A DNA stretch of 32,000 bases from Candidatus Aminicenantes bacterium UBA6072 (lineage in GTDB: Bacteria > Acidobacteriota > Aminicenantia > UBA2199), in contig DIXU01000004.1 of the NCBI GenBank assembly GCA_002436105.1, positions 40,166-72,165 on the forward strand. The letters are read 5' to 3'. The translations under genes were made by a program, and so were the position numbers. Shown here piece by piece: positions 767 through 15,964 of this stretch; position 1 is the stretch's first letter; the number at the start of each line of letters is the position of its first letter. A model generated the notes under the pieces. That model searched no databases. It had not been told where the DNA came from and saw nothing but the letters and a program-made list of their open reading frames with translations.

Positions 767-3376
767 ATGGCGAACTACAAAGGCAGGGACCTGAAGATCT
801 ACGCCTCGGACGAATCGCTGGCCGGGGACGAAAGAAATTACCGCAATGTCTTTGACGTGTGCGAGGTGTCGTTCATCTGGGCCGAATTCTCGTTCTATAA
901 CAAGCTGGTTGACGAGAAGAACTGGCGCATCAAATGCCATCTGCGGGTCATTGACAGGCAAAACAAAGTGGTCTGCGACCTGGATGCCAGCCAGGAAGTC
1001 CTCCTTGGAGAAGCGCTGAAAATCATCCGCGTGAAATGGGGGGCTGAACAGGAGAGCGCCTTCTGGGGAGAGGGCGAATACCGCTGGGAAGCCTGGGTGG
1101 ACGATGAATTGGTCTTTCACAGGACGTTCTATATCACGGATCAAGGGGCGGTCCTGCCCGGACACAACCCCTATTTCACGATCAATTCCCTCCGCTTATT
1201 TGAAGGCCCTTCCCTGATACTGGAACCTGATTCCCGGAACTATGCGAATCAATTCCCCTGTGACCAGGCGCGCTTCATCTGGCTGGAGTTGAAGGCGGAG
1301 AACCGGCTGGTGAATGAGCCGCATGATTGGCCCTGCGAGATCTTCGTCAGCCTGTTCGGCCCCACCATGCGGTTGAAAAGCCGGATCCGCAAGCTGTTTC
1401 TCGTCGGCCGAAACGAAGCGCAGTTCAGTGTCATCCTGGGCTGGGGCGCTGATGAAGCCGGCAGCTGGAAGGAAGGGGACTATCGCATCGAGGTGCATTT
1501 TATGGACCTGTTGCTGGCCAATATGAAATTTTCGATCACCGCCCCCGCGGACGGCGAAAAGGATGAGGAAGGCGTCAATGCCAACAAAAGGCTTACGTTC
1601 ATCTTCACCAAGGACCCGAAGCCGCTCAGGCCAGCGGAGGAAAAAGCCCCTTGCCCCGAGGATGTCCTGGACGGACTGAATGCCCTGATCAGCCTGGACG
1701 CGATCAAATCCCGGGTAACCGATTTCATTCAATACGTGCAATTCGTCAAGCTGAGGAAGGAGAAGGGGCTCCAGGAGGCGGACAGGATCAACCTGAACGC
1801 GATCTTCACCGGCAATCCCGGGACCGGGAAAACCATCGTCGCCAAGCAGCTGGGCGGTATCTTCAAGCGCATCGGGCTGCTGCCAGGCGGGCACCTGATC
1901 CAAGCCGACCGCTCCGACCTGGTCGGCGAGTACATCGGCCAAACCGCTCCCAGGACCAAGGCCCTGATCCAGAAGGCCCTGGGCGGCGTGCTGTTCATCG
2001 ACGAGGCCTACTCCCTGCAGCGCAGGGACGACGATGCCCGCGATTACGGCAGGGAGGTGATCGAGATCCTCCTCAAGCAGATCTCGGAGAACGAAGGGGA
2101 GCTGGCCGTCATCCTGGCCGGATATCCCCAGGAAATGGAAATCTTCATGAACTGCAACCCGGGGCTCAAGTCGCGTTTCGGCATGCATTTCGAGTTTCCC
2201 GACTATACCCCCCAGGAGCTCCGGCAGATCGCGGAGCTGGCGGCCAAAAAGCGGGGCATCGAGTTTTCCCCGCCGGCGGCCGAGCAGTTGTACAGGAAAC
2301 TGGTGGAGGCCTACCGCAACCGCGACCGCACCTTCGGCAACGCCCGCTTCGCCATCTCGCTGGTCGACGAGTCCAAGATCAACATGGCCCTGCGCCTGAT
2401 GCAGTTGCCCGATCGCCGGGACCTCGGCCGGGAAGCGTTGTCGCGGATCGAAGCCCCGGATGTGGAGAACATCCGCCTGAAGAAGCGCGGCAAGGTCCCC
2501 GACATTCCCGTCGACGAGGCGCTGCTCAAGGACGCCCTCCAGCAGCTGCAGGCCATGGTCGGCCTGGAAGCGATCAAGCACGAGATCGAGGAGCTGGTCA
2601 AGCTGGCTCGCTATTACCGGGAGATCGGCAAGGATATCCGCCGCGTCTTCTCCCTGCACTCGGTGTTCATGGGCAATCCCGGCACCGGCAAGACCACCGT
2701 GGCCCGCCTGATGGCCGACGTCTACAAGGCGCTGGGCATCCTGGAGCGCGGCCACCTGGTCGAGTGCGAGCGCCGTCAGCTGGTCGCCGGCTACGTCGGT
2801 CAGACCACGGAAAAAACCAACCGCCTGATCGACACCGCCATGGGCGGCGTGCTGTTCATCGACGAAGCCTACGCGCTGTCGCGGCGGGGAGCCGATGATT
2901 TCGGCATGGAGGCCATCGAGACGCTGCTGAAGCGCATGGACGACGACCGCGGCCTGTTCGTGGTCATCGTCGCCGGCTACGTGCAGAACATGAACCGGTT
3001 CATGGAGTCCAACCCGGGGCTGAAATCCCGCTTCGACCGCGTCCTGCATTTTGACGACTACACCGCCGCCGAGCTGAACGAGATCGCCCTGTTCCTGTTC
3101 GACAAGGAGGGCGTTTCCCTCGCCGCGGGGGTAAAGGACCATCTGCGCGGCTATTTCGCCGCCCTGTGCGCCATCGGCGATCCCAACCTGGGCAACGCCC
3201 GCATCGTCCGCCGCGTCTGCGAAAAGGCCGTCCGCAACCACGACCTGCGCCTGGCGGCGCTGCCCGCCAAGTCGCGCAAGTCAAAACAAGCGGGAACCCT
3301 TACCCTGGAGGACGTGCAGGAGTTCAGCGCCGACGACGTGCTTGCCCGGATCGACAATCGTATCGGATTCCGTTGA
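767..3376 (+). CDS. Double-module AAA+ ATPase of the CbbX/SpoVK/EccA type, with a duplicated N-terminal domain of unknown function
   Basis: ATG with AGGA 4 nt upstream and strong GC3 bias. Two Walker A motifs GNPGTGKT, each followed by GGVLFIDEAY (Walker B) and NPGLKSRF. The N-terminal ~270 aa is an internal duplication: FIWAEF..VKWGAE..WGEGEYRWE versus FIWLEL..LGWGADE..WKEGDYRIE. Confidence 0.9.
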   Translation: MANYKGRDLKIYASDESLAGDERNYRNVFDVCEVSFIWAEFSFYNKLVDEKNWRIKCHLRVIDRQNKVVCDLDASQEVLLGEALKIIRVKWGAEQESAFWGEGEYRWEAWVDDELVFHRTFYITDQGAVLPGHNPYFTINSLRLFEGPSLILEPDSRNYANQFPCDQARFIWLELKAENRLVNEPHDWPCEIFVSLFGPTMRLKSRIRKLFLVGRNEAQFSVILGWGADEAGSWKEGDYRIEVHFMDLLLANMKFSITAPADGEKDEEGVNANKRLTFIFTKDPKPLRPAEEKAPCPEDVLDGLNALISLDAIKSRVTDFIQYVQFVKLRKEKGLQEADRINLNAIFTGNPGTGKTIVAKQLGGIFKRIGLLPGGHLIQADRSDLVGEYIGQTAPRTKALIQKALGGVLFIDEAYSLQRRDDDARDYGREVIEILLKQISENEGELAVILAGYPQEMEIFMNCNPGLKSRFGMHFEFPDYTPQELRQIAELAAKKRGIEFSPPAAEQLYRKLVEAYRNRDRTFGNARFAISLVDESKINMALRLMQLPDRRDLGREALSRIEAPDVENIRLKKRGKVPDIPVDEALLKDALQQLQAMVGLEAIKHEIEELVKLARYYREIGKDIRRVFSLHSVFMGNPGTGKTTVARLMADVYKALGILERGHLVECERRQLVAGYVGQTTEKTNRLIDTAMGGVLFIDEAYALSRRGADDFGMEAIETLLKRMDDDRGLFVVIVAGYVQNMNRFMESNPGLKSRFDRVLHFDDYTAAELNEIALFLFDKEGVSLAAGVKDHLRGYFAALCAIGDPNLGNARIVRRVCEKAVRNHDLRLAALPAKSRKSKQAGTLTLEDVQEFSADDVLARIDNRIGFR

Positions 3377-3498
3377 TCGCTCATGTTTGCAAACACATCG
3401 AGTTCTCTGTTGAGTGGAATCGGATGAGATGGAGATCGTTTTGAAATCAGACATCTCCATATAAATCGTTGAAATATGTCTCAAATGGAGGAGGAGCT

Positions 3499-6400
3499 AT
3501 GGATAGACGGCCTGAATCGCCTGGTTTTGATTCTTCAGATAATCGACTAATCCGAGTCTTCGTTTCTTCCACTTTTCGTGACATGCTCGAAGAACGAGAT
3601 AAACTGATGACCCATACCTGGCCGGAGTTACGACGTTTTTGCAAAGAACGGCAAGTAGAACTGGTTGAAGTTGATTTACGCTGGGGGATTTCGGAAAGTC
3701 AGAGCGAACGAAATGAAACACTGAAATTATGCTTAGGTGAAATTCGTGCATGCCGCCCTTTTTTTATCGGATTACTTGGCGAACGTTACGGAGGAGCACC
3801 AGCGGACGCTGCTTTCACTGCCGACCTTAAGGAAGAACACCCATGGTTAATTAAAAATTACGGAAAAAGTTTTACTGAATTTGAAATCCTTTATGGAGTT
3901 CTCAACAATCCCGAAATGGCAGGCCGTGCTTTTTTTTATTTCCGCGATCCAGCTTATGCTAAGGCTCACGGGGTGGATTTCCTTGCTGAGAATACTAATG
4001 CTTCATTAAGGCAATCCGAATTAAAGGACGCCATCCGCGCTGTATGTAAAACGAAAAATATCCCTCTGTACGAAAACTACTCCGATCCGAGCGAGTTAGC
4101 TGCTCTTGTCCTCAATCAACTAAAAATGGCAATCGCCGACTTATTCCCAACAGAAGCCATTCCAGATCCGCTTGCACATGAGGCCCTAAATCACAAAGCA
4201 TTTGCAGAAATTCGTTGCCGTACATATATTGGGTGCCACGAATATTTTGATAAACTCAACAACTATATTAAGGGAAACGATACGCCAATTGTATTGCTGG
4301 GAGATTCAGGAAGTGGCAAATCTGCTTTGTTGGCCAACTGGATTCAGGAATGGTCGAAATCACATCCGAATGATATTATTTTCCAGCATTACATCGGAAG
4401 TACGCCGGATAGTATCGGACATTGGAAACTGATGACCCGATTGATGGCCGAAATAAATAAAATATCTGGGGTTTCCGATGAAATACCACATTCACACGAT
4501 GAAATTCTCTTAGCGTTTCCTGCCTGGTTGGCAAAAGCTCGAAGCAAGGCGGAGCGTGAGGGCTTCCATTTCATTGTCGTGCTAGATGCTCTCAATCAAC
4601 TTGAAGATGTAGACAATGCTAAAAATCTTGGTTGGTTACCATCCCATTCTTTTAAAGGCCCCTTAAAGCTTATAGTATCTACCCTTTCTGGTGACACCCT
4701 TAGAGCTCTGGATTTGAGGCATTGGGATACGCAAACAATTAAACCTCTTTCACCTGATGATCGCCGTAAGATGATTGGCGATTACTTATTACGTTTTGGC
4801 AAAAAAATCGATTCTGCTCGACTTATTCGCATTGCCGACAATCCAGCTACGGCCAATCCTCTTTATTTGAAAATATTTCTTGATGAATTGCGAGTTACAG
4901 GCACCCATGACAGGCTTGACGAACGAATCAACGATTATCTGGCTGCAACGGATATTCCATTATTAATGCAAAAAGTTCTGACACGTTACCAAAGTGACTA
5001 TGAACGGGACTGTCCAGGGCTGGTGAAAGAAGTGCTTGGGCTTATTTGGGCTTCTCGACGCGGGCTTACTGAAGCTGAGATACTGCGTATCCTGCGTCCT
5101 GCCGATTTGCCACAATTGCCGTTGGCATTTTGGTCCCCCCTGCGAGCGGCACTAGAGGAAAGCCTTATCGACAGAGGGGGATACCTGAATTACATTCACG
5201 ATTTCATTCGAATTGCTGTTGAGGTCGCTTTCGTGCCTGATGAGGACAGTAAAAACTCATTTCGCCAAAGGCTGGCGAGCCATTTTGAAGCCCAACCTGA
5301 AAACGAGCGAAATTGTGACGAGTTGCCATGGCTTTTAAAGCAGATGAATGCTCGAACCCGCCTCCGTAGTTGCTTGCTCGAAATAAACCGATTTATTTTT
5401 ATGTTCGCGCGAGATGAAGATGAAATCACGTCGAACTGGGTATGGCTGGGAGAAGTACAAGAGATGGGGAAATCCTATCAAGATGCATTTAAAAAATGGT
5501 CTTTGAGATCTGGGGGAGATAAAGATTCGAATTTCCGAGCTGCTGCCCGCATTAGTCATATTCTTTTCAAGGCAGGTTTAGTTAATGAAGCCGAACCGTT
5601 AATGCGAGAGGCACTCAAGATGTGTCCAAAAGGGGATCCAACTGAATTAACAGATTTGCTCAATGATTTCGCTAGATTGCTCAGCTCGACGAATAGAGTG
5701 GATGAAGCCCAAAAATATATGCGACAAGCGTTGCAAATAGATGAGTCTTTCTTTGGGAAACAGCACCAAAAAGTTGGCCGCGATTTAAATAGTCTCTCAA
5801 TAATGCTGGCTATGGCTCAACGCCCGGATGAAGCTATATCGTATATGCAACAAGCATTGCAAATCGCGGAAACCAATTTGGGAATGAATCATCCCGATGT
5901 AGGAACCGCAGCAAAGAATCTCGGGGTCCTATTACAAAACAATGGAAGACTTGATGAAGCCGAACCACTTTTACGACGAGCTCTTTTTATTTCCGAATCA
6001 AGCCTTGGGAAAGAGGATTCAAGCGTTGCCCAAAAAGCCTTAAGTCTCGGGTTTTTGCTACTGTATACGCAACGTTGGGAAGAAGCTGAATCTCTATTTC
6101 GCAGAGCTCTCTCCATACTTGAGAAGAGCTTCGGGCCGGAGCACCCAGATGTGGCGACGGCCCTAAATAACCTTGCCCAGTTGCTTAATTCAAGTAATCG
6201 ATCTAGCGAGGCGGAACCACTTTTGAAAAGAGCATTGTATATTGCGGAAACTACTTTTGGGAATAGCCATCCTAATGTATCCCTATACCTCTACAATCTC
6301 GCTCTGACTTACCAATTATTGAATCGAATTGACGAAGCTATACCGATGTTTCAAAAAGCATTGCAAATAAGCGAGTCAAACCTAGGTCCTTATCATCCAG

Positions 6401-7041
6401 AAGTGGTAAAAGATCGTAATAGCCTAATGGAGTTGATTGAGGCTGCAGCTCAAGTAAAAGAAAATGAATCTTTTTTGCGCAATGAATTGCATTTTGCCGA
6501 GGAACAATTCGGGAAGGATCATGTCCAAGTAGCGGAAAAACTCAATGAACTCGCCCAGTTTCTTCAAGCCACGAATCACCTGTCTGAAGCTGAAAATCTT
6601 ATGCGCAGGGTTATTTCAATTTTTATAAACTCAACACCAAAGAATCCGGCGAACCTGGTTATCAGTCTCAATAATCTAGCTGGCTTGTTTCAGGCTGGAA
6701 AACGATTACATGAGTCCCAACAGCAATTCCACGAGGCACTGAAAGTTGCTGAGGAGAATTTAGATAAAAATCACCTCGCGACGGCCATCACTCTTAACAA
6801 CCTTGCGATGTTACTTAAAACCGATGGACGACCGAAAGAAGCTCAACCATTTATGTGTAGAGTTATAGAAATATTTGAAAAAAATGCAAAAATTAATGGT
6901 CAATTGCATCCAAACTTCCAGGCAATTGTAAAAAACTATATTGAAATTCTGGAGTCGATTCAATGGAATCAATATCAAATCAGTTCACATTTAAATAAAA
7001 TAGCTCCCGACTATCGTTGGGACGACAAGTTTTGGAATTAA
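3499..7041 (+). CDS. DUF4062-like N-terminal domain + NACHT/STAND P-loop NTPase + about 11 kinesin-light-chain-type TPR units (NPHP3-like architecture; candidate Avs/bNACHT-like sensor)
   Basis: I chose ATG 3499 (GGAGGAGGAG at 3487-3496) rather than the TTG at 3469. N-terminus is IRVFVSSTFRDMLEERDKL..DLRWGISE. Walker A is LLGDSGSGKSALLANW and Walker B is FIVVLDALNQLED. The C-terminus repeats the 42-aa pattern EAEPLLRRAL.I.E...G..HPDVA..LNNLA. The gene is visibly AT-richer than both flanks. Confidence 0.9.
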   Translation: MDRRPESPGFDSSDNRLIRVFVSSTFRDMLEERDKLMTHTWPELRRFCKERQVELVEVDLRWGISESQSERNETLKLCLGEIRACRPFFIGLLGERYGGAPADAAFTADLKEEHPWLIKNYGKSFTEFEILYGVLNNPEMAGRAFFYFRDPAYAKAHGVDFLAENTNASLRQSELKDAIRAVCKTKNIPLYENYSDPSELAALVLNQLKMAIADLFPTEAIPDPLAHEALNHKAFAEIRCRTYIGCHEYFDKLNNYIKGNDTPIVLLGDSGSGKSALLANWIQEWSKSHPNDIIFQHYIGSTPDSIGHWKLMTRLMAEINKISGVSDEIPHSHDEILLAFPAWLAKARSKAEREGFHFIVVLDALNQLEDVDNAKNLGWLPSHSFKGPLKLIVSTLSGDTLRALDLRHWDTQTIKPLSPDDRRKMIGDYLLRFGKKIDSARLIRIADNPATANPLYLKIFLDELRVTGTHDRLDERINDYLAATDIPLLMQKVLTRYQSDYERDCPGLVKEVLGLIWASRRGLTEAEILRILRPADLPQLPLAFWSPLRAALEESLIDRGGYLNYIHDFIRIAVEVAFVPDEDSKNSFRQRLASHFEAQPENERNCDELPWLLKQMNARTRLRSCLLEINRFIFMFARDEDEITSNWVWLGEVQEMGKSYQDAFKKWSLRSGGDKDSNFRAAARISHILFKAGLVNEAEPLMREALKMCPKGDPTELTDLLNDFARLLSSTNRVDEAQKYMRQALQIDESFFGKQHQKVGRDLNSLSIMLAMAQRPDEAISYMQQALQIAETNLGMNHPDVGTAAKNLGVLLQNNGRLDEAEPLLRRALFISESSLGKEDSSVAQKALSLGFLLLYTQRWEEAESLFRRALSILEKSFGPEHPDVATALNNLAQLLNSSNRSSEAEPLLKRALYIAETTFGNSHPNVSLYLYNLALTYQLLNRIDEAIPMFQKALQISESNLGPYHPEVVKDRNSLMELIEAAAQVKENESFLRNELHFAEEQFGKDHVQVAEKLNELAQFLQATNHLSEAENLMRRVISIFINSTPKNPANLVISLNNLAGLFQAGKRLHESQQQFHEALKVAEENLDKNHLATAITLNNLAMLLKTDGRPKEAQPFMCRVIEIFEKNAKINGQLHPNFQAIVKNYIEILESIQWNQYQISSHLNKIAPDYRWDDKFWN

Positions 7042-8719: not shown

Positions 8720-9742
8720 TTACGTCAAAAGCTCGGAGATGGAGCGGTTGTGGTTGATGTTGAAGATCACCCGGGCAAAATACTTGGCGACGGATACTTC
8801 AAGGAACCAGGGAAAGCGCTTGGAAAAATCGTTGCCATGATATACGGCATCGGTCGCGATCAAACCGTTCAGATAGCCTTTTCGGTACAACTCGTCCAGT
8901 TTCTGTACCGCTTTGCCGTTGAACAGGGGAAGCGAGCAGGCGAAATATACCTTATTTGCTTTCTCTTCTATCTTCAGGAGCTCGATCGTGGAAACGACCG
9001 TTCCACCTGTATCCACCATGTCGTCGATGAGCAGGACATCCCTGCCATGGACGTCGCCCAGCAGGATCGATTCCGAAACGCAGTTGGGTTTCGTGTAATC
9101 CCTTTTTTTATAAATGAACCCCAATTCGGTTTTGAGCTTCGAAGCATAGTGTTCGGCGCGCGGGGCGCCCCCGGCGTCGGGAGAAAGGACGACCAGGTTT
9201 TTCGTATCGATGTGCTCGACGACATAGTCGATGATGTTCTTGGACGCGTGAAGGTCCTCGAATCGCGCCATCCTGAAAAAACCGGCGATGGCGGAATTGT
9301 GGACGTCGAGCGTTAGGACCTGGGTCGCCTTGCAGTTTTCGATCTCCTCGGCGACCCGGGCCGCCGTGATGCCTTCGCGGGATTTGGCCTTGTCCTGGCG
9401 CGCGTACGGAAAGGTGGGGATGACGACGCTGATGTTTCCGGCTCCGGAGCGCCAGGCCGCGTCGATGGCCGTTTTCAATGCCCTGAGGTTCTGGTCGACC
9501 GAATAGCCGTTGACGGAGTTCTCGACGTCCTGGATGATAAAGATGTCGGTGCCGCGGATGCTGTCCAGCACTTCGGTCTTGATCTCGCTGTTCTCGAAGT
9601 GGGTTTCCCTGGAATCGATGAAATGCACCGCTTCATCGGCCCCTTCCCTTTGGACGATATCGTTGATCTGGAGCAGCACTTTTTCCGCGAACGGTTTCCC
9701 CGACTCGCAGGCCATGATGGCCAGTTCTCCTCTTTTGAACAT
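8720..9742 (-). CDS. prs: Ribose-phosphate pyrophosphokinase (PRPP synthetase), divergent type
   Basis: Motifs VIPTFPYARQDK, LTLDVHN, VVLSPDAGGAPRA and VLLIDDMVDTGGT (PRPP-binding loop). At 340 aa it is slightly longer than E. coli Prs, and it has RQDK instead of RQDR. Confidence 0.88.
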   Translation of the reverse strand: MFKRGELAIMACESGKPFAEKVLLQINDIVQREGADEAVHFIDSRETHFENSEIKTEVLDSIRGTDIFIIQDVENSVNGYSVDQNLRALKTAIDAAWRSGAGNISVVIPTFPYARQDKAKSREGITAARVAEEIENCKATQVLTLDVHNSAIAGFFRMARFEDLHASKNIIDYVVEHIDTKNLVVLSPDAGGAPRAEHYASKLKTELGFIYKKRDYTKPNCVSESILLGDVHGRDVLLIDDMVDTGGTVVSTIELLKIEEKANKVYFACSLPLFNGKAVQKLDELYRKGYLNGLIATDAVYHGNDFSKRFPWFLEVSVAKYFARVIFNINHNRSISELLT

Positions 9743-9779: not shown

Positions 9780-10115
9780 TCAGACTTCATCGACATGGTT
9801 GTTGCGGTCTTTTTTGCTCATTTCCAGGAACCATATGCCAGTAAATTCCTCAAGAATGATCTTTGTAATCCGGGCCAGTATCTCATTGTCGCATCCCGGG
9901 TACGTTTCCTGCAGTCGCGTTATGGATTTATCCAAGGTGGTTTTGACCAGCAGGTCGAAACAATCGTCATACTCTTTTCTGTAGATAACGGCATATTTGT
10001 CTATCCATTCGCCCACCGCCTCTTCCCCTGGATCGCGGCCGATCTCGACACCCTTGAACCACTTGTGCTTGAGCGCTTCCTGCAGCTGATTCCGCATCAA
10101 TGTCTTCATGTCCAT
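9780..10115 (-). CDS. Hypothetical 111-aa protein upstream of prs
   Basis: GGAGG lies 9 nt upstream of the ATG. Its stop is 37 nt before the prs start. No domain recognised with confidence. Confidence 0.6.
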   Translation of the reverse strand: MDMKTLMRNQLQEALKHKWFKGVEIGRDPGEEAVGEWIDKYAVIYRKEYDDCFDLLVKTTLDKSITRLQETYPGCDNEILARITKIILEEFTGIWFLEMSKKDRNNHVDEV

Positions 10116-10234
10116 GGGGGAGTGCCTCCGGATATTTCCAAGATTTTACCATTATTTTGTTGGAATTGAAATTATTTATTTGCTCAAAAATTGCGTGCTT
10201 CCGAGTCAAGAACTGCCTTGTGCCGAGTATTGTT

Positions 10235-10444
10235 TTACAGAATATCCAGTTCCTTTTTGTGAACAGGACATATATAGCCGCTTCCTTCATCCAGGGCACA
10301 CTCCGTGCAGAATGCCTGGTCGCATGTCGGACAGACGCCGAGGAGAAGGTCGAATACGGTTTGTCCGGGCTTGGTCGCGACAATGTTCGGAGCTCGGCCG
10401 CACCGCGAACATGAGGGTTGCAGTGATTGGTTATTATTATTCAT
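10235..10444 (-). CDS. Small Cys-rich zinc-ribbon-like protein (69 aa)
   Basis: Paired metal-ligand motifs CSRC, CPTC, CTEC and CPVH. There is no clear Shine-Dalgarno (upstream reads tttctccatc). Confidence 0.5.
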   Translation of the reverse strand: MNNNNQSLQPSCSRCGRAPNIVATKPGQTVFDLLLGVCPTCDQAFCTECALDEGSGYICPVHKKELDIL

Positions 10445-10534
10445 GATGGAGAAATCATATTATGAAATCCGAATTGTTGCAATCAATCCAAGTCAGGGAT
10501 TCGCTATGATATGATGAGTGTCTGGAGATAAAAA

Positions 10535-10924
10535 ATGAACGATGAAAGATTGTATCCCGTAAAAAAGGAAATTCATGCACAAGGCAATCCGATCGAGTTA
10601 CATTTCAGCGTGAACGCCTATTTCGGCACCCACGACCGGGAAGAGAGCGGGGAGGTGCCGCTGGCCGTTATCAACAAGGAAGGGATGGTTTTCCTTGTCG
10701 AAAAAATATCTGAAAACTGGCAGGGGATCGCTTCCGGCGTGGATATCAAGCATGAGTTGACTTACTCAAAAAACTCCCGGGAATCCAAATACAGCCTGCG
10801 CATTCAGCCCGATGCCTGTCCGGTCACCATCCGGGTCAAACATTTTCATGAAAATTCAGCATCGGATTTTCCGCATCACGGGGAAGCGCATGAAGACTAT
10901 CATTCAATATTGGTTATCGATTGA
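10535..10924 (+). CDS. Hypothetical 129-aa protein
   Basis: ATG with GGAG about 9 nt upstream. No recognisable motif. Confidence 0.55.
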   Translation: MNDERLYPVKKEIHAQGNPIELHFSVNAYFGTHDREESGEVPLAVINKEGMVFLVEKISENWQGIASGVDIKHELTYSKNSRESKYSLRIQPDACPVTIRVKHFHENSASDFPHHGEAHEDYHSILVID

Positions 10925-11001
10925 GCAAAAGTGTGCTCGATCAGGTTTCACAAAGAGAGGGAATGTGCTTGATCAGTTTTCCCATGCGATCTGATTTTAC
11001 C

Positions 11002-11030
11002 TTGACTGCCCGACTGCATTTCCATAGAAT
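11002..11030 (+). promoter_or_regulatory. Near-consensus sigma70 promoter ending 6 nt before ATG 11037, implying a leaderless or near-leaderless mRNA
   Basis: TTGACT (11002-11007), a 17-nt spacer and TAGAAT (11025-11030). There is no Shine-Dalgarno before ATG 11037. Confidence 0.55.
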
Positions 11031-11036
11031 CGGCTG

Positions 11037-11540
11037 ATGGGCAAATCATTTTATTCTGTCCGCACAGTTCTTTTTTTTCTTGTCTTCGTCCTGCTGACCG
11101 CTCCCATCCACGCCCAACCCCGAAAATTGCCCCCCTTGAATCGGGATTTCTTCCTTTTCATGGCGGGGATCATCCTGGTTTTTCTTATCTATTCGATCAG
11201 AACCCGGAGCATCATCTGGCCGCTATGGACTGGCCTGATCAAGCAATCGCGATGGCTTTCCGCGGCGCATATAGTTCTTTTCCTGTCATGTTTCTTGTTT
11301 GGCGCGAAGATTTTCAGCGGCGGCTCATTTGATTGGCAAATCCCGTTGACGTTATTCGTTTTTGGAGTGATCCTGCTGATTCCGGGAGTGTATTGCCAGT
11401 GGAAGATAGCCCCTGATGAACATTGGAGCAGGGCTTTCCTAAATACACTGTTGTCGCTGGCGATCGGTTTTTTGATTTTCCCCGGATTTGCGCTTGTCTA
11501 TTTCTTGACGCACGCATTGACCGCCTTCCTTCGGGATTGA
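11037..11540 (+). CDS. Integral membrane protein (signal/anchor plus about 4 TM segments), function unknown
   Basis: Hydrophobic N-terminus FFLVFVLLTAPIHA-QP, followed by several 20-aa hydrophobic stretches. Confidence 0.6.
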   Translation: MGKSFYSVRTVLFFLVFVLLTAPIHAQPRKLPPLNRDFFLFMAGIILVFLIYSIRTRSIIWPLWTGLIKQSRWLSAAHIVLFLSCFLFGAKIFSGGSFDWQIPLTLFVFGVILLIPGVYCQWKIAPDEHWSRAFLNTLLSLAIGFLIFPGFALVYFLTHALTAFLRD

Positions 11541-11576
11541 TCTGAAAGCATATCTTGGATCAGCAATTTCGGCGAT

Positions 11577-11606
11577 TTGCTTATTCAGGTAATTGTTCTA
11601 TATAAT
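11577..11606 (+). promoter_or_regulatory. Sigma70-type promoter of the 11627-20701 operon
   Basis: TTGCTT (11577-11582), an 18-nt spacer and TATAAT (11601-11606). AGGAGG at 11617-11622 precedes ATG 11627. Confidence 0.6.
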
Positions 11607-11626
11607 GGCAAACTTCAGGAGGATCA

Positions 11627-14266
11627 ATGGATAAAGTGGGAAAGGGGAGCAAGACCATCGTCGTCACCGGCGATTTCACCATCGACTGGAACATCGCCCG
11701 CATCCGCCGCGACGACATCAGCGGCAACAGCTGGAATCCCAACGACCTCACCCGGGCCTGCTGGCAGCGCGGCGGCGCGGCCCTGCTGGGCGACCTGATC
11801 GAAAACCTGGCTGTGGACCTGAAAGGCAAGGGCCTTGGGGAATTCACGGTCAGGAAAATATCGGATATGCCCAAATTCGCCTGCCCCGCCGATGAGCGCT
11901 TCCACCATTCCTATGCCCAGTGGGCGCTTTTCAACTTCAAGGATAAAGAGGGCGCCGAGCCGCGGGCCTGGAGAGTATCCGAGTTCATCGGCCTCGACCG
12001 CAGCGCTAACGGCTGGGCCGAATTCATTGGCGCGCAGTCCAGGGCTGCCGTTGAGCCCGACCTGATCGTTCTCGACGACGCCGACCTCGGGTTCCGGGAC
12101 CATCCCGAACTTTGGTCGCAATTGCTCAAGAAAAGAAACAATACAACCTGGGTCGTGTTGAAAATGTCGCGGCCCGTGGCCCAGGGAGCGCTGTGGGAGC
12201 ACCTGCACCGCGAGTGGGCCGACCGCCTGATCGTGGTCATGACCGCCAACGACCTGCGACGTACCGAGGTGCAGATCAGCCGCGAGCTCTCCTGGGAGCG
12301 CACGGCCCAGGACCTGGCCTGGGAGCTGGTGCACAACCCCCGGGTCAACGCCCTTTCCGATTGCGCCCGGGTGGTATGCTCGTTCGACACGTCGGGAGCT
12401 TTCCTGCTGCACAAGCGCCGGGGATCGCTTTTTTTCGATCCCCAGGGCATTGAAGGCACCTGGAACGGCGGTTTTCCCGGCGGCATGATCGGCTACAACT
12501 CATGCCTGGCCGCCGCCATCGTGCGCCAGTTGCTCATCTCTCCCAAAAATCCCGATATCCAGAATGGAATTCAATCCGGGATCCAGGCCCAGCGCCGCCT
12601 GCACCAGGAGGGCTATGGGGACCGCACTCAGAAAAAAGCCGAACCGCAGCTGGCTTTCCCCTTGGCAACGGTTGTGTCGGCTTTGGCAGAAGATACGTTA
12701 CCCTGCTCGGTCATCGACGTGCAGGACCCGGTCATGCATTTGAAAAACGTGAAGCCGATGCCTGTGGCGGAAACGGCGGACGGATTCTGGACCATATTGC
12801 ATGACCGCTATGCGCAAACCCTGGAAGAAACCGCCCGGCGCATCGTGCTGGAAGGGCCCGAAACCGTGCTGCGCGACGTGCCATTGGGTAAATTCCGCGG
12901 CCTGCTGACCGCCGACCGCCGGGAGATCGAGAGCTTCCGCGGCCTGCGCTCGCTGGTGGCCGAATACTGCAGCAAGAGCCGGCAGAGCAAGCCCATCTCG
13001 ATCGCGGTCTTCGGCTCCCCGGGCTCGGGAAAGTCCTTCGGCATCAACGAGGTCGCCCTTTCGCTTTTTCCGAAGCTGATTGAGAAGAAGGAGTTCAACG
13101 TCTCGCAGTTCACCTCGGTCGATGACCTGCACAACGCATTGCACCAGGTGCGCGACCTGGGGCTCTCGGGAAAGATCCCGCTGGTATTTTTCGACGAGTT
13201 CGACTCCGCCCTGGAGGGGCAAAGCCTGGGCTGGCTGCGCCATTTCCTGATGCCCATGCAGGACGGGGCTTTTCTGAAGGGACAAATATCCCATCCCCTG
13301 GGCATGGCCATATTCGTCTTTGCCGGCGGCACCAGCGAGAAGCTGGAGGCGTTCGGCAGCCACCTGACGCCCGAGGATTTCCGCAAGGTGAAGGGGCCCG
13401 ATTTCGTCTCCCGCCTCAAGGGATTCGTCAATATCATGGGTCCGAACCCCGTTGCCTCCATGGCCGGCGGAGACCCGCATTATATGCTGCGCCGCGCCAT
13501 TTTGTTACGCTCGAGCATTTCGCGCAATGCCAGGCACATCATCGGCAAGAGCGACGGCAGGGAAACCATGAATATCGACCCCGGCGTGCTCAACGCTTTC
13601 CTGAAGATCAGCCAGTACAAGCATGGCGTGCGGTCCATGGAAGCGATCATGGCCATGAGCCAGCTGGCCGGCAAGAGCGGTTATGAGCGCTCCTGCCTTC
13701 CTTCCGAGGCCCAGCTCGACCTGCATGTCAACGGCCTCGAATTCCTGGCCCTGGTGCAGCAGATCGTCCTTACCCCGGAAATATTGGAAAAACTGGCGGC
13801 CGCTGCCCATGACATCTTCTGCCTGGGGAAAAAGCGCGACGGCTATCGTTTCGGCAGGGAAAAAAGCGAGAAAAAAAAGACCCATCCCTTGCTGATGGCC
13901 TATGACAAGCTCCCGGAGTGGGCCAAGGAAGCCAATCGGACCAATGTGAACACCATCCCGCAGAAACTGGCGGCTGCCGGCTATATCATGATCCCGGCCC
14001 GCAGCAACCAGCCGGCACTGAAGTTCCCCGGGAAAGATCTGGAAAAACTCGCGCAGCTGGAGCACGAATTATGGATGGCGGCGAAGCTCGCCGCCGGATT
14101 CAAAAAGGGAAAGCCCACGGCCGCCGATCCCTATCGCAATGAATACCTGGTGGATTGGAATAGACTGACCGACAGGATCAGGCAGATCGATCGCGACCTG
14201 GTCAAGGGCATCCCGCAGATCCTGGCCCGTGCCGGCTATGCCATCGAAAAGCTGAAGCAAGAATAG
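11627..14266 (+). CDS. Large multidomain protein: N-terminal ~340 aa (possibly a degenerate ribokinase/PfkB-like fold), P-loop AAA-type ATPase, two C-terminal RyR domains
   Basis: Strong RBS and strong GC3 bias. Walker A is IAVFGSPGSGKSFG, Walker B is PLVFFDEFDSA, a sensor-like IFVFAGGTS follows, then GPDFVSRLKG. RyR-like repeats are KKRDGYRFGREKSEKKKTHPLLMAYDKLPEWAKEANRTNVNTIPQKLAAAGY and ELWMAAKLAAGFKKGK...NEYLVDWNRLTDRIRQIDRDLVKGIPQILARAGY. N-terminal hints are IVVTGDFTIDW, GGAALLGDL and FPGGMIGYNSCLAAAIV. Confidence 0.88.
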   Translation: MDKVGKGSKTIVVTGDFTIDWNIARIRRDDISGNSWNPNDLTRACWQRGGAALLGDLIENLAVDLKGKGLGEFTVRKISDMPKFACPADERFHHSYAQWALFNFKDKEGAEPRAWRVSEFIGLDRSANGWAEFIGAQSRAAVEPDLIVLDDADLGFRDHPELWSQLLKKRNNTTWVVLKMSRPVAQGALWEHLHREWADRLIVVMTANDLRRTEVQISRELSWERTAQDLAWELVHNPRVNALSDCARVVCSFDTSGAFLLHKRRGSLFFDPQGIEGTWNGGFPGGMIGYNSCLAAAIVRQLLISPKNPDIQNGIQSGIQAQRRLHQEGYGDRTQKKAEPQLAFPLATVVSALAEDTLPCSVIDVQDPVMHLKNVKPMPVAETADGFWTILHDRYAQTLEETARRIVLEGPETVLRDVPLGKFRGLLTADRREIESFRGLRSLVAEYCSKSRQSKPISIAVFGSPGSGKSFGINEVALSLFPKLIEKKEFNVSQFTSVDDLHNALHQVRDLGLSGKIPLVFFDEFDSALEGQSLGWLRHFLMPMQDGAFLKGQISHPLGMAIFVFAGGTSEKLEAFGSHLTPEDFRKVKGPDFVSRLKGFVNIMGPNPVASMAGGDPHYMLRRAILLRSSISRNARHIIGKSDGRETMNIDPGVLNAFLKISQYKHGVRSMEAIMAMSQLAGKSGYERSCLPSEAQLDLHVNGLEFLALVQQIVLTPEILEKLAAAAHDIFCLGKKRDGYRFGREKSEKKKTHPLLMAYDKLPEWAKEANRTNVNTIPQKLAAAGYIMIPARSNQPALKFPGKDLEKLAQLEHELWMAAKLAAGFKKGKPTAADPYRNEYLVDWNRLTDRIRQIDRDLVKGIPQILARAGYAIEKLKQE

Positions 14267-14275
14267 GGAGCAGGA

Positions 14276-15913
14276 TTGCCAATCGCCGACATCCCATTCC
14301 GGTTGCGCATCGGCATTACCGGCCACCGGACCATCAATGATCCCGAAACGGTTTCGCGGCAGATCAGGGATTTCCTGCATGAGCGGATATGGGAATTGTT
14401 CGATCCGCCGGCAGGGAGAAAAAAATCCGGCACGCGCCTCGCTTTCACCCTGCTGAGCCCCCTGGCGGAAGGTGCCGATCGTCTGGCCGCCGCCGAGATC
14501 CTCAAGATCGCCGATTCCGAAATTGAAGCGGTTTTGCCCATGGCCGCGGGCGACTATGAGCGCGATTTTGCCACGTCCGAGTCCCGGGCCGAATTCCATG
14601 ATCTGCTCAGCCGGGCCGGCAGAACGATCGTGCTGAAAGAAACTGCCTCCGACAACACCCTGGACGAGGTGCGCAGAAAAGCATACGAGGCGGCCGGCCG
14701 ATATGTCGTCGACCATTGTGACCTGCTCATCGCCGTGTGGGACGGCATGCCGGCCCGGGGCAGGGGAGGCACGGCCGAGATCGTCGCCTATGCCCGGGGA
14801 AAAAAGCTGCCGCTGATCGTCGTTTCTTCGCTTGATCCTTATGACATAACACTTGAAAAGGGATCGGGGCTGAACGGTCAGGCCTATATCCGGCTGGGGG
14901 TTTTCAATTCATTTGCCATCGCCGCCAATGTCCGGGATGCGTATGTCGACAATATGCACCGGGACCTGTTCGCCAATCCCGATGGTGAACGGCTGGACGG
15001 GGCGATAAGAGAACGCATCCGTTCCGGGCTGCTGCCCTGGTATGTGCGGGCTTCTTCGATCGCCAAGCGCAGCCAGAAAAACTACCTGCGGGCCGGGCTG
15101 CTGGTCTATTCCCTTTCGCCGCTGGCGGTGGCGGCGGTGGCCCTGGCCATTCTCATGCCCAAGTGGGCATCGCCGGCCTTTGTCGTCGAATTCATCCTGC
15201 TGGGGATTATCCTGTTGGTCATCGTGTCATCGGACAGGCGCAGAACCCATCAGAACTGGATCGAGGCCCGCTTTCTGGCCGAACGCATCCGCTCGGCGAT
15301 CTTTCTGACGGCCGGCGGCGTCCAGGCTTCCTGCCTGGTGCACATTCACGCCCTGAGGCCGCAATTGGAAGCCGGGGCGTGGACCATCCAGGCTTTCGAT
15401 GAAATCATGAGACGCATGGGGCCGATTGAATGCTGTGACCAAGCCGGCTGTGATCTCGGCATCGCCTACGTGCGCCGCCACTGGCTGCAGGATCAAATTC
15501 ATTTCCATGTCTCCAAGGCCCAAAGATCGCAAAAGGCCGGTCATCGCCTGGAGAGAGCCGGCTGGCTGGTCTTTATGACCGCTTTTTTTATTGCGGCGTG
15601 GCATCTGATCGAACTGTTTCTTGGTCATCCGGAGATTTTGGCCTGGCTCGGGAAACCTCTTGTTTTTCTCGCTGTTGTGCTGCCGGCCATCGGCGCCACC
15701 CTGGGCGGCATCCGCGGCCACCGCGAATATTCCCGCCTGGCCAAACGCAGCCAGTACATGCAGGCCGTGTTGTCCGACATGGACAGTCGCCTGGCGAACA
15801 TTACCCAGGCCAAGGAGCTGACCGCCCTCCTGCAGGAAACCGAACAGCTGATGCTGCAGGATACCCAGGAGTGGCTGATGCTGATGAAGTTCGCCAAGGT
15901 GGAGGCAATATAA
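14276..15913 (+). CDS. SLOG domain (YpsA/DprA/LOG-like Rossmannoid) fused to a C-terminal multi-TM SLATT-like domain
   Basis: The frame opens at 14267. There is no in-frame ATG before aa ~88, so the start is TTG 14276 (GGGAG at 14266-14270), 9 nt after the upstream stop. SLOG motifs are RIGITGHR, LSPLAEGADRLAAAE and LLIAVWDG..ARGRGGTAEIVAYARGKKLPLIVV. The C-terminal half has hydrophobic helices LLVYSLSPLAVAAVALAIL, FVVEFILLGIILLVIV, WLVFMTAFFIAAWHLIELF and LVFLAVVLPAIGATLGGI, followed by a charged tail. Confidence 0.85.
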   Translation: MPIADIPFRLRIGITGHRTINDPETVSRQIRDFLHERIWELFDPPAGRKKSGTRLAFTLLSPLAEGADRLAAAEILKIADSEIEAVLPMAAGDYERDFATSESRAEFHDLLSRAGRTIVLKETASDNTLDEVRRKAYEAAGRYVVDHCDLLIAVWDGMPARGRGGTAEIVAYARGKKLPLIVVSSLDPYDITLEKGSGLNGQAYIRLGVFNSFAIAANVRDAYVDNMHRDLFANPDGERLDGAIRERIRSGLLPWYVRASSIAKRSQKNYLRAGLLVYSLSPLAVAAVALAILMPKWASPAFVVEFILLGIILLVIVSSDRRRTHQNWIEARFLAERIRSAIFLTAGGVQASCLVHIHALRPQLEAGAWTIQAFDEIMRRMGPIECCDQAGCDLGIAYVRRHWLQDQIHFHVSKAQRSQKAGHRLERAGWLVFMTAFFIAAWHLIELFLGHPEILAWLGKPLVFLAVVLPAIGATLGGIRGHREYSRLAKRSQYMQAVLSDMDSRLANITQAKELTALLQETEQLMLQDTQEWLMLMKFAKVEAI

Positions 15914-15964
15914 TCAGATTATTCTTATTGATATCTCCAAAGATCGATCTTGAAAGGAGAGGAG

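Follow-up and report, generated by a model that had tools for sequence, protein, structure and literature searches.

The window analyzed here is a stretch of 32,000 nucleotides (nt) from Candidatus Aminicenantes bacterium UBA6072 (contig DIXU01000004.1, positions 40,166 to 72,165). It carries an open reading frame (ORF) for a protein of 545 amino acids (aa) in which an N-terminal SLOG-fold domain and a tandem SLATT region are joined in one polypeptide, as the original prediction from the nucleotide sequence had proposed. This SLOG-SLATT gene lies directly behind a gene for a large protein with a ribokinase fold, a P-loop ATPase domain and two RyR repeats (RyR-ATPase) and ahead of a gene for a DUF4062-containing STAND protein (Table 1). 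The folds, membrane topology, start codon, family size and gene linkage described below were computed in this study. Residue conservation was read from an alignment of 44 homologues, which also served as the input for AlphaFold2 (AF2), and the membrane topology was determined by a Kyte-Doolittle scan and from the AF2 model. For the gene neighborhood, 82 loci were collected in addition to the window (83 in total); their ORFs were called and clustered, and adjacency was counted over 81 of them. The four loci referred to most often below encode proteins with 90% (L081), 60% (L082), 53% (L001) and 49% (L002) identity to the window protein.

Table 1. Features of the SLOG-SLATT locus and related genes in other loci
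Feature	Locus	Position (nt)	Strand	Basis or remark
RyR-ATPase partner gene, 879 aa	Window	11627..14266	+	Pfam, AF2, Foldseek
Shine-Dalgarno-like GGGAG	Window	14266..14270	+	First G shared with upstream TAG; 5-nt spacer CAGGA before TTG
TTG start codon	Window	14276..14278	+	Sole start-capable codon from 14267 up to the conserved N-terminal motif
SLOG-SLATT gene	Window	14276..15913	+	ORF, 545 aa
SLOG-fold (YpsA-like) Rossmannoid domain, aa 8-194	Window	14297..14857	+	AF2, Foldseek
First SLATT-like module, aa 253-346	Window	15032..15313	+	Pfam/NCBIfam SLATT_3, hydropathy
Transmembrane helix 1, ~aa 272-293	Window	15089-15154	+	Hydropathy, AF2
Transmembrane helix 2, ~aa 298-319	Window	15167-15232	+	Hydropathy, AF2
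Second SLATT module, aa 389-538	Window	15440..15889	+	Pfam/NCBIfam SLATT_1, hydropathy
Transmembrane helix 3, ~aa 429-450	Window	15560-15625	+	Hydropathy, AF2
Transmembrane helix 4, ~aa 458-479	Window	15647-15712	+	Hydropathy, AF2
DUF4062 (TIR-like NADase, NIR)-NACHT/STAND-WD40 gene, 1,578 aa	Window	15965..20701	+	Probable ATG 15965, preceded by AGGAGAGGAG
Second DUF4062-NACHT-TPR gene	Window	3469..7041	+	Pfam DUF4062 E 1.6e-11, NACHT, TPR
SLOG-only genes	L054; L062; L078; L079; L025	4758-5411; 7959-8636; 7962-8612; 7974-8645; 9221-9868		
TrkA_N-RyR genes (I)	L059; L022; L023; L012	9584-11485; 5850-7745; 10017-11828; 9982-11436		By SLOG-SLATT or SLOG-only genes
TrkA_N-RyR genes (II)	L062; L063; L084	8767-10581; 8241-10109; 10304-12085		By SLOG-SLATT or SLOG-only genes

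SLOG fold, tandem SLATT modules and family

The AF2 model of the SLOG-SLATT protein (predicted local distance difference test score, pLDDT, 85.8; predicted TM-score 0.84) consists of an α/β domain at aa 8-194 (pLDDT ~90) and an all-helical remainder. The sole significant Foldseek match in the Protein Data Bank (PDB) was YpsA (PDB ID: 2NX2; E 8e-5, probability 1.0, target TM-score 0.66), the founding member of a SLOG clade, which has 13% sequence identity to the domain. The top matches among the viral models of BFVD were phage DprA-like (TM-score 0.81), cpYpsA-SLOG and DUF2493 proteins, all of which belong to the SLOG superfamily, and the model has the three-layer α/β architecture that this superfamily shares with Smf/DprA, LOG and YpsA. 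The SLOG-clan hidden Markov models (HMMs) of Pfam and NCBIfam gave no match at E ≤ 1 with either the whole protein or aa 1-225. A sequence profile search of the PDB returned no SLOG protein and only chance matches to glyceraldehyde-3-phosphate dehydrogenase and myosin, and the nucleoside 2-deoxyribosyltransferase model (Nuc_deoxyrib_tr) matched 2 of the 44 relatives weakly. Because no sequence model matches, the SLOG assignment rests on the fold; the SLOG head of the original prediction is thus upheld by the AF2 model and its similarity to YpsA, and not by the HMM search.

The SLOG domain has four conserved loops, G13-x-T15-G16-H17-R18, E65-G66-A67-D68-R69, W155-D156 and G164-G165-T166. G13, T15, G16, H17, R18, E65-G66-A67-D68 and G164-G165-T166 are conserved in at least 90% of the homologues and are located at strand ends in the model. 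Compared by motif, the G-x-D and GGT loops appear to resemble the G-x-D/E ligand-site motif of YpsA (PMC6459960).

The C-terminal region contains four transmembrane helices, which form two hairpins (aa 272-319 and 429-479). The outer loops are short and the cytoplasmic flanks are basic, which places both termini and the SLOG domain in the cytoplasm. This agrees with the two-transmembrane repeat topology and the approximately four hydrophobic helices that had been predicted. The amphipathic tail predicted along with them was rejected: the C-terminal helix ends in a conserved E-x-Q-[DE]-W-L-x-L-M motif (peptide QEWLMLMKFAKVEAI, with W533 invariant), and its helical hydrophobic moment is 0.08-0.11 versus a protein-wide mean of 0.24.

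Each hairpin lies in a region matching a SLATT model and has the flanking cytoplasmic helices that are typical of SLATT. SLATT_3 matched aa 256-340 (Pfam E 2e-4, 22.1 bits with a cut-off of 26.3; NCBIfam E 2.5e-6), and SLATT_1 matched aa 404-533 (Pfam E 0.016, 15.6 bits with a cut-off of 26.3; NCBIfam E 2.2e-7). The NCBIfam scores were 30.9 bits versus a cut-off of 41 and 27.6 bits versus 45, and all SLATT scores of the window protein are thus below the curated cut-offs. Among the 44 relatives, SLATT_1 was found in 33, DUF4231 in 19 and SLATT_3 in 16. Many members of the family are annotated with PF18181. In six relatives that can be aligned from end to end (P0058, P0247, P0253, P0248, P0103 and P0116), SLATT_1 exceeds the Pfam cut-off with 26.6-33.6 bits. 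The expected Pfam SLATT match was therefore obtained with several relatives and not with the window protein itself. Since its own SLATT scores are subthreshold and no SLOG HMM matches, membership in both groups rests on the fold and on the relatives. The association with SLOG, SMODS or TIR that is characteristic of SLATT proteins is also found, in the form of the SLOG-fold fusion and of TIR or DUF4062 genes no more than two genes away in 48 of 81 loci.

A word-indexed search for the family gave >700 matches, and an exhaustive search gave 2,753 clusters at 50% identity with E ≤ 1e-30 and 11,613 with E ≤ 1e-3. Relatives occur in at least 514 species-level genomes of Acidobacteriota, Chloroflexota, Actinomycetota, Desulfobacterota, Bacteroidota and other groups. 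The SLOG-SLATT architecture is kept from end to end across the family, and 3-4 transmembrane segments were counted in 71 of 74 full-length relatives (3-5 in 74/74). Five loci have SLOG-only genes of the same family (215-225 aa, without a transmembrane segment) in place of the fusion; they share its context, which shows that the sensor can stand as a module of its own. Six longer members of 700-805 aa (P0058, P0247, P0251, P0253, P0248 and P0260) have N-terminal extensions without a Pfam match, and an additional HMM stretch in the longer members suggests a possible duplicated SLOG domain. P0300 (1,195 aa) has ankyrin repeats ahead of the SLOG-SLATT unit. The longer relatives (700-1,195 aa) were also examined for a fused TIR domain as a possible Rosetta-stone link; this idea was rejected since the extensions either lack a Pfam match or consist of ankyrin repeats.

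A conserved TTG start codon

The upstream ORF (11627-14266) stops at TAG 14264-14266, 9 nt ahead of the TTG codon. The frame of the SLOG-SLATT gene opens at 14267 with GGA GCA GGA, which is followed by TTG 14276, and its first in-frame ATG is codon 89 (14540). The exact positions agree with the earlier description of a frame that opens at 14267 and has no ATG for about 88 codons, and with the GGGAG located 5 nt before the TTG. The RIGITGHR motif, which had been placed near codon 10, begins at codon 11. Two start codons had been offered, TTG 14276 and TTG 14303. In the 44 homologues, P7, R9 and R11 (motif IPFRxR, consensus IPFRIRIGVTGHR) are invariant or nearly so. Because these residues are located upstream of TTG 14303, the latter is excluded; translation must start ahead of them, which leaves TTG 14276.

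The same upstream gene directly precedes the SLOG-SLATT gene in five loci, namely, the window, L081, L082, L001 and L002. TTG is the only candidate start codon in all five and is invariant in the DNA alignment. In the four loci other than the window, it is located 10-13 nt past the upstream stop codon, and a purine-rich Shine-Dalgarno-like sequence is kept 4-5 nt before it. The conserved TTG and the spacer of 9-13 nt are a real, selected feature of the window clade. As judged from this arrangement, translational coupling and low expression are plausible in the clade. Across the family, start codons were scored in 51 loci. About 35 of them have an ATG 6-20 codons ahead of the motif, roughly a dozen offer only GTG or TTG, and TTG-only starts are limited to the window clade and one other locus. 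Since most relatives have an ATG and many have another gene order, a weak start is not generally required for tolerating a SLOG-SLATT effector, and dose limitation, as originally predicted, would at most be a trait of the clade.

The start codon is also a practical matter because gene callers truncate the SLOG-SLATT gene. Two automatic gene calls (P0002 and P0010) give 534 aa, 11 residues short of the 545-aa form. For P0010 (L082, 5573), the caller began at a GTG within the conserved RxRxGxTGHR motif and lost conserved residues; the true start being TTG, this call is truncated.

RyR partners, TIR/DUF4062 neighbors and other genes

The RyR-ATPase protein consists of a ribokinase/PfkB fold (aa 1-~375), a P-loop ATPase (~aa 438-640) and two RyR repeats of the R12 type (~aa 700-879, nt 13725-14263). 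The repeats match Pfam RyR (PF02026; E 2e-21) and RyR3 Repeat12 (E 1e-17), and the ATPase has intact Walker A (GSPGSGKS) and Walker B (VFFDEFD) motifs. All 200 of 200 Foldseek matches to the AF2 model of aa 1-430 (pLDDT 87.7) are ribokinase-family proteins. The NxxE and GAGD motifs of ribokinases are apparently altered to N-D-L-R and G-I-E-G; therefore, this domain may serve to bind a ligand and not to phosphorylate it. In RyR repeat 2, an H-E-L-W motif and a later Asp resemble the catalytic dyad of the phage protein RyDEP, and repeat 1 has Phe and Asn at these positions.

A homologue of RyR-ATPase lies no more than 8 kb from SLOG-SLATT in 29 of 83 loci, or in 26 of the 62 that have at least 3 kb on both sides. 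Its position varies, with examples upstream and downstream of SLOG-SLATT as well as on the opposite strand. A second RyR architecture of ~600 aa, with an NAD-binding RCK-type TrkA_N domain (NAD, nicotinamide adenine dinucleotide) and a C-terminal RyR repeat, neighbors SLOG-SLATT in six loci. In most loci with a RyR neighbor, the partner is the ribokinase-like/ATPase/RyR protein, and in the others it is TrkA_N-RyR. Elsewhere, the RyR-ATPase family occurs with SLOG-only, TrkA_N-RyR and DUF4062-STAND proteins, with a cNMP-binding-TIR protein, with a RelA/SpoT-TPR protein, or alone. For instance, it adjoins a RelA/SpoT-TPR protein in L083 (9677-11713) and a cNMP-binding-TIR_2 protein and an inosine-uridine nucleoside hydrolase in L085 (9966-11893). 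These contexts suggest that the RyR protein may plug into several nucleotide-signal systems.

The product of the downstream gene matches DUF4062 (Pfam E 5e-13), NPHP3_N/AAA_16/NACHT and WD40 propellers. TIR proteins are encoded in 46 of 83 loci and DUF4062 proteins in 16, so that one or the other is present in 56. All TIR ORFs (58/58) match Pfam TIR_2, 19 match the Thoeris model ThsB_TIR, and one Glu is nearly invariant. Many of the TIR/DUF4062 partners are STAND NTPases with WD40 or TPR repeats, and many others are short TIR proteins with a ThsB-type domain. TIR and DUF4062 swap for each other in the same gene slot. Of the 81 loci, 34 have a TIR or DUF4062 gene immediately beside SLOG-SLATT and 48 have one no more than two genes away; for RyR-ATPase, the corresponding counts are 17 and 24, and at least one of the three is present within two genes in 57. 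The occupancy by TIR/DUF4062 decreases from 24% in slot 1 to 14%, 7% and 4% in slots 2, 3 and 4, and that by RyR-ATPase from 11% to 5%, 1% and 1%; in slots 5 to 8, both are at most 2% where counts are adequate. This decay with distance favors a specific linkage over general clustering in islands. The order SLOG-SLATT, RyR-ATPase, TIR recurs in L030, L034, L045 and L073. The window has the order RyR-ATPase, SLOG-SLATT, DUF4062-STAND, which L054 matches with a SLOG-only gene, SLATT being missing, and a DUF4062-STAND-WD40 gene.

Several other genes of the window were noted. A two-AAA-domain protein (767-3376, + strand; PADLOC IetA-like matches, E 7e-16) precedes the second DUF4062-NACHT-TPR gene, which is probably a member of the same island. 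The guanine-cytosine (GC) content of the latter stretch is ~41-46% versus ~58-64% in adjacent genes, and the region 767-7041 as a whole suggests a separately acquired defense module in the island. Ribose-phosphate pyrophosphokinase (PRPP synthetase) is encoded divergently upstream of the operon (8720-9742, - strand), and the YpsA literature links SLOG to phosphoribosyl enzymes. A Macro-domain protein, a fold that binds or processes ADP-ribose (ADPR), is encoded three genes downstream (22662-23231, + strand; Pfam E 2e-31), and its nearness may be coincidental. The PRPP synthetase, Macro and APH genes were rejected as members of the system: they are syntenic only in L081 and L082 and absent from the other 80 loci, and are therefore taken as local synteny. 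Two small upstream genes (10535-10924, + strand, 129 aa, no match; 11037-11540, + strand, 167 aa, with a hydrophobic-looking sequence) are also kept only in these two close relatives. A promoter and terminator scan of 10000-21500 found sites no more numerous than in shuffled sequence, and the operon boundaries are therefore not defined by it. The top promoter-like site, TTGACT-17-TAGAAT at 11002-11030, precedes the 167-aa gene and may open the operon.

Proposed role and comparison with known systems

The context of NADase-type TIR/DUF4062 neighbors and RyR partners gives the SLOG-SLATT gene its likely meaning. On balance, and with modest confidence, we favor the reading that its product is the effector of a Thoeris-like immune system that uses an NAD-derived signal. 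Thoeris TIR proteins make isomers of cyclic ADP-ribose (cADPR), and in type VII Thoeris the effector that responds to cADPR is the SLATT protein ThsH (bioRxiv 10.64898/2025.12.03.692087). DUF4062 is a TIR-like NADase that Avs-type STAND proteins employ as their effector (bioRxiv 10.64898/2026.05.01.722283, 10.64898/2026.09.04.749371). The SLOG domain of ThsA binds TIR-made 3'cADPR, which switches the effector on (bioRxiv 10.64898/2025.12.03.692087; PMC9503650). Here, we infer a ligand, a gating step, a toxic outcome, a role in defense and a role for the RyR protein, as follows. When infection occurs, a STAND or TIR sensor would oligomerize, and its TIR or DUF4062 domain would turn NAD+ into ADPR or a cADPR isomer. 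The SLOG head would bind this ADPR-derived signal, as the SLOG domain of ThsA binds 3'cADPR. Ligand binding would cause the SLATT hairpins to assemble or open and to breach the inner membrane, and growth would stop before the virus cycle ends. The RyR protein may bind the same class of ligand. It could act on the host side to set the firing threshold, as a buffer or off-switch, or it could be a co-sensor; this step is the most speculative. In the window clade, synthesis of the effector is probably tied to that of the RyR protein, and kept below it, through the weak TTG codon and the short distance from the upstream gene.

Several points weigh against an immune effector of this kind. The 80 genome loci are the top-scoring ones among at least 514 and hence not a random sample, and the gene slots derive from a crude ORF caller. 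The lack of a SLOG-clan match and the subthreshold SLATT scores described above also count here. About 30% of the loci lack all three partners within two genes. The partner in the window is a DUF4062-STAND protein and not a canonical TIR protein, and its gene is on the opposite strand in L081 (90% identity) and absent in L082. PADLOC (2023) has no model for SLOG-SLATT, the RyR protein, or the 129-aa and 167-aa upstream proteins, and the gap for the first two falls on the same side. Furthermore, DUF4062 is reported to deplete NAD as an effector in its own right, hydrolyzing NAD+ to linear ADPR (bioRxiv 10.64898/2026.05.01.722283, 10.64898/2026.09.04.749371), so that the downstream gene could be an independent Avs-type system.

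We consider it unlikely that RyR-ATPase and SLOG-SLATT work as a self-contained pair and that the TIR/DUF4062-STAND genes are independent Avs-type NAD-depleting neighbors in a defense island. Under this alternative, the pair would sense something else, such as falling NAD+ or rising ADPR brought about by any NADase or by a phage, or the ribokinase-like/ATPase protein would itself be the trigger. In its favor, L082 has the pair and no TIR/DUF4062 gene within 10 kb, the DUF4062 gene is inverted in L081, DUF4062-STAND proteins are reported to be self-contained NADase effectors (bioRxiv 10.64898/2026.09.04.749371), and the second DUF4062-NACHT-TPR gene and the IetA-like two-AAA gene of the window are typical of an island. 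However, general island neighbors fit poorly with the steep drop in TIR/DUF4062 occupancy (24% in slot 1 to at most 2% in slots five to eight), many of the partners are short TIR proteins with ThsB-type domains rather than STANDs, and TIR/DUF4062 genes are present in 56 of 83 loci versus 29 for RyR-ATPase. The very strong conservation of polar residues in the pocket (H17, R18, E65, D68, R69, D156 and T166) would suit a SLOG domain that is itself an enzyme, such as a LOG/YpsA-type N-glycosidase or another nucleotide-processing enzyme, and that makes or destroys a nucleotide-derived molecule at the membrane, where the SLATT region would serve as an anchor or conduit. LOG-clade SLOG proteins are glycosidases, SLOG domains have been predicted to be sensors or enzymes (PMC6459960, PMC9503650), and the two weak matches to nucleoside 2-deoxyribosyltransferase point the same way. 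The closest fold is YpsA-like and not LOG, characterized SLOG or nucleotide-binding heads fused to effectors are all sensors (ThsA), and a TIR-type enzyme able to make the signal already adjoins in most loci; we therefore regard an enzymatic head as very unlikely. Least likely in our estimate is a nonimmune role in membrane permeability or ion flux linked to ADPR or NAD, in the stress response or development of soil and sediment bacteria. It would agree with the function of YpsA, which is tied to oxidative stress and cell division and not to phage defense (PMC6459960), with the synteny of the locus with housekeeping genes in close relatives (PRPP synthetase, Macro, APH-like kinase and FtsJ), and with the TrkA_N-RyR neighbors, which suggest a link to ion transport. 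It is opposed by the patchy spread of the family across phyla, the variable gene order, and the STAND/TIR partners and patatin neighbors, which are hallmarks of conflict systems.

The favored reading of a Thoeris-like effector can be extended to a widespread three-component immune system, in which TIR/DUF4062 enzymes, either STAND-type or stand-alone, make the ADPR-derived signal, SLOG-SLATT reads it and opens the membrane, and a host RyR (R12) protein binds, hydrolyzes or gates it. We put this extension forward tentatively, as possible rather than probable. A fusion of this kind was to be expected among effectors; the novelty lies in the conserved partner with RyR domains and in the way TIR and DUF4062-STAND replace each other. 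A literature search found no paper naming both SLATT and RyR. Burroughs et al. (2015; NAR 43:10633) reportedly predicted the coupling of a nucleotide-sensing SLOG domain to a pore-forming SLATT effector with two transmembrane segments in TIR-containing conflict systems. The name SLATT stands for "SMODS and SLOG-associating 2TM effector" (Pfam, PMC9226505). SLOG sensors (ThsA) and SLATT effectors (ThsH/CBASS) have so far been validated in separate proteins. As its family runs to thousands of sequence clusters, the fused protein would bring a very common type of effector into TIR-based immunity. In the 2025 Thoeris survey, no SLOG-SLATT effector is mentioned in the main text. The survey dropped TIR domains in AVAST (Avs) proteins and stand-alone TIR proteins before the partner search, and many of the STAND-type partners found here would not pass such a filter.

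Among the characterized systems, ThsA of type I Thoeris (SIR2-SLOG) likewise has a SLOG domain fused to a cell-killing effector, which is putative in the present case, and is encoded beside a TIR protein. In contrast, the effector of ThsA is a soluble SIR2 NADase and not a membrane SLATT region, its SLOG domain is of the STALD type, whereas the fold here is closest to YpsA, and its domains run in the opposite order. The partners in the present family are frequently STAND-type TIR/DUF4062 proteins, along with a RyR protein. ThsH, like the SLATT effectors of CBASS and DRT10, shares the SLATT effector with two transmembrane segments beside a TIR gene. ThsH is reported to be cADPR-responsive and predicted to oligomerize into a membrane-breaching assembly (bioRxiv 10.64898/2025.12.03.692087). 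It has no SLOG head, and its pockets are predicted between SLATT protomers, whereas the present protein has a dedicated SLOG domain and two tandem SLATT modules. YpsA of Bacillus subtilis (2NX2) is the best structural match of aa 8-194, and its G-x-D/E loop, the predicted ligand site (PMC6459960), has an apparent counterpart here, as judged by motif. Unlike the SLOG-SLATT protein, YpsA is a stand-alone soluble protein associated with cell division and oxidative stress, and the two have no HMM-level similarity. The downstream gene has the DUF4062-NACHT-repeat architecture of the Avs/NLR-like STAND proteins with a DUF4062 effector (NIR, Swarozyc and Evangelion). These have been described as acting alone in NAD depletion, whereas here the gene or its TIR equivalent recurrently neighbors SLOG-SLATT, which suggests that its product may also serve as a signal.

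The RyR partner is best compared with RyDEP, a phage protein that acts as a glycosidase on 2'/3'cADPR or as a sponge for it. RyR-domain proteins of phages either bind 2'/3'cADPR or cleave it (PMC13232231), and the upstream protein has two RyR repeats of the same family, PF02026. As judged by eye against H75, W78, H100 and D117 of RyDEP, repeat 2 has the H-x-x-W and a later Asp. RyDEP is a small viral counter-defense protein, whereas the repeats here form the C terminus of an 879-aa host protein with a ribokinase fold and an ATPase. A host RyR partner is timely in view of the 2026 work on the phage domains, and its pairing with SLOG-SLATT provides a way to ask what a RyR domain does on the host side, whether in setting a threshold, recycling the signal or co-sensing it. 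The same pairing could reveal whether cADPR, RyR domains and membrane channels share an ancient connection. If the three-component reading holds, the system would be a prokaryotic precedent for the control of membrane conductance by cADPR-type ligands via RyR domains, as proposed for animal ryanodine receptors, and the RyR protein would correspond, on the cellular side, to the anti-Thoeris RyDEP proteins of phages.

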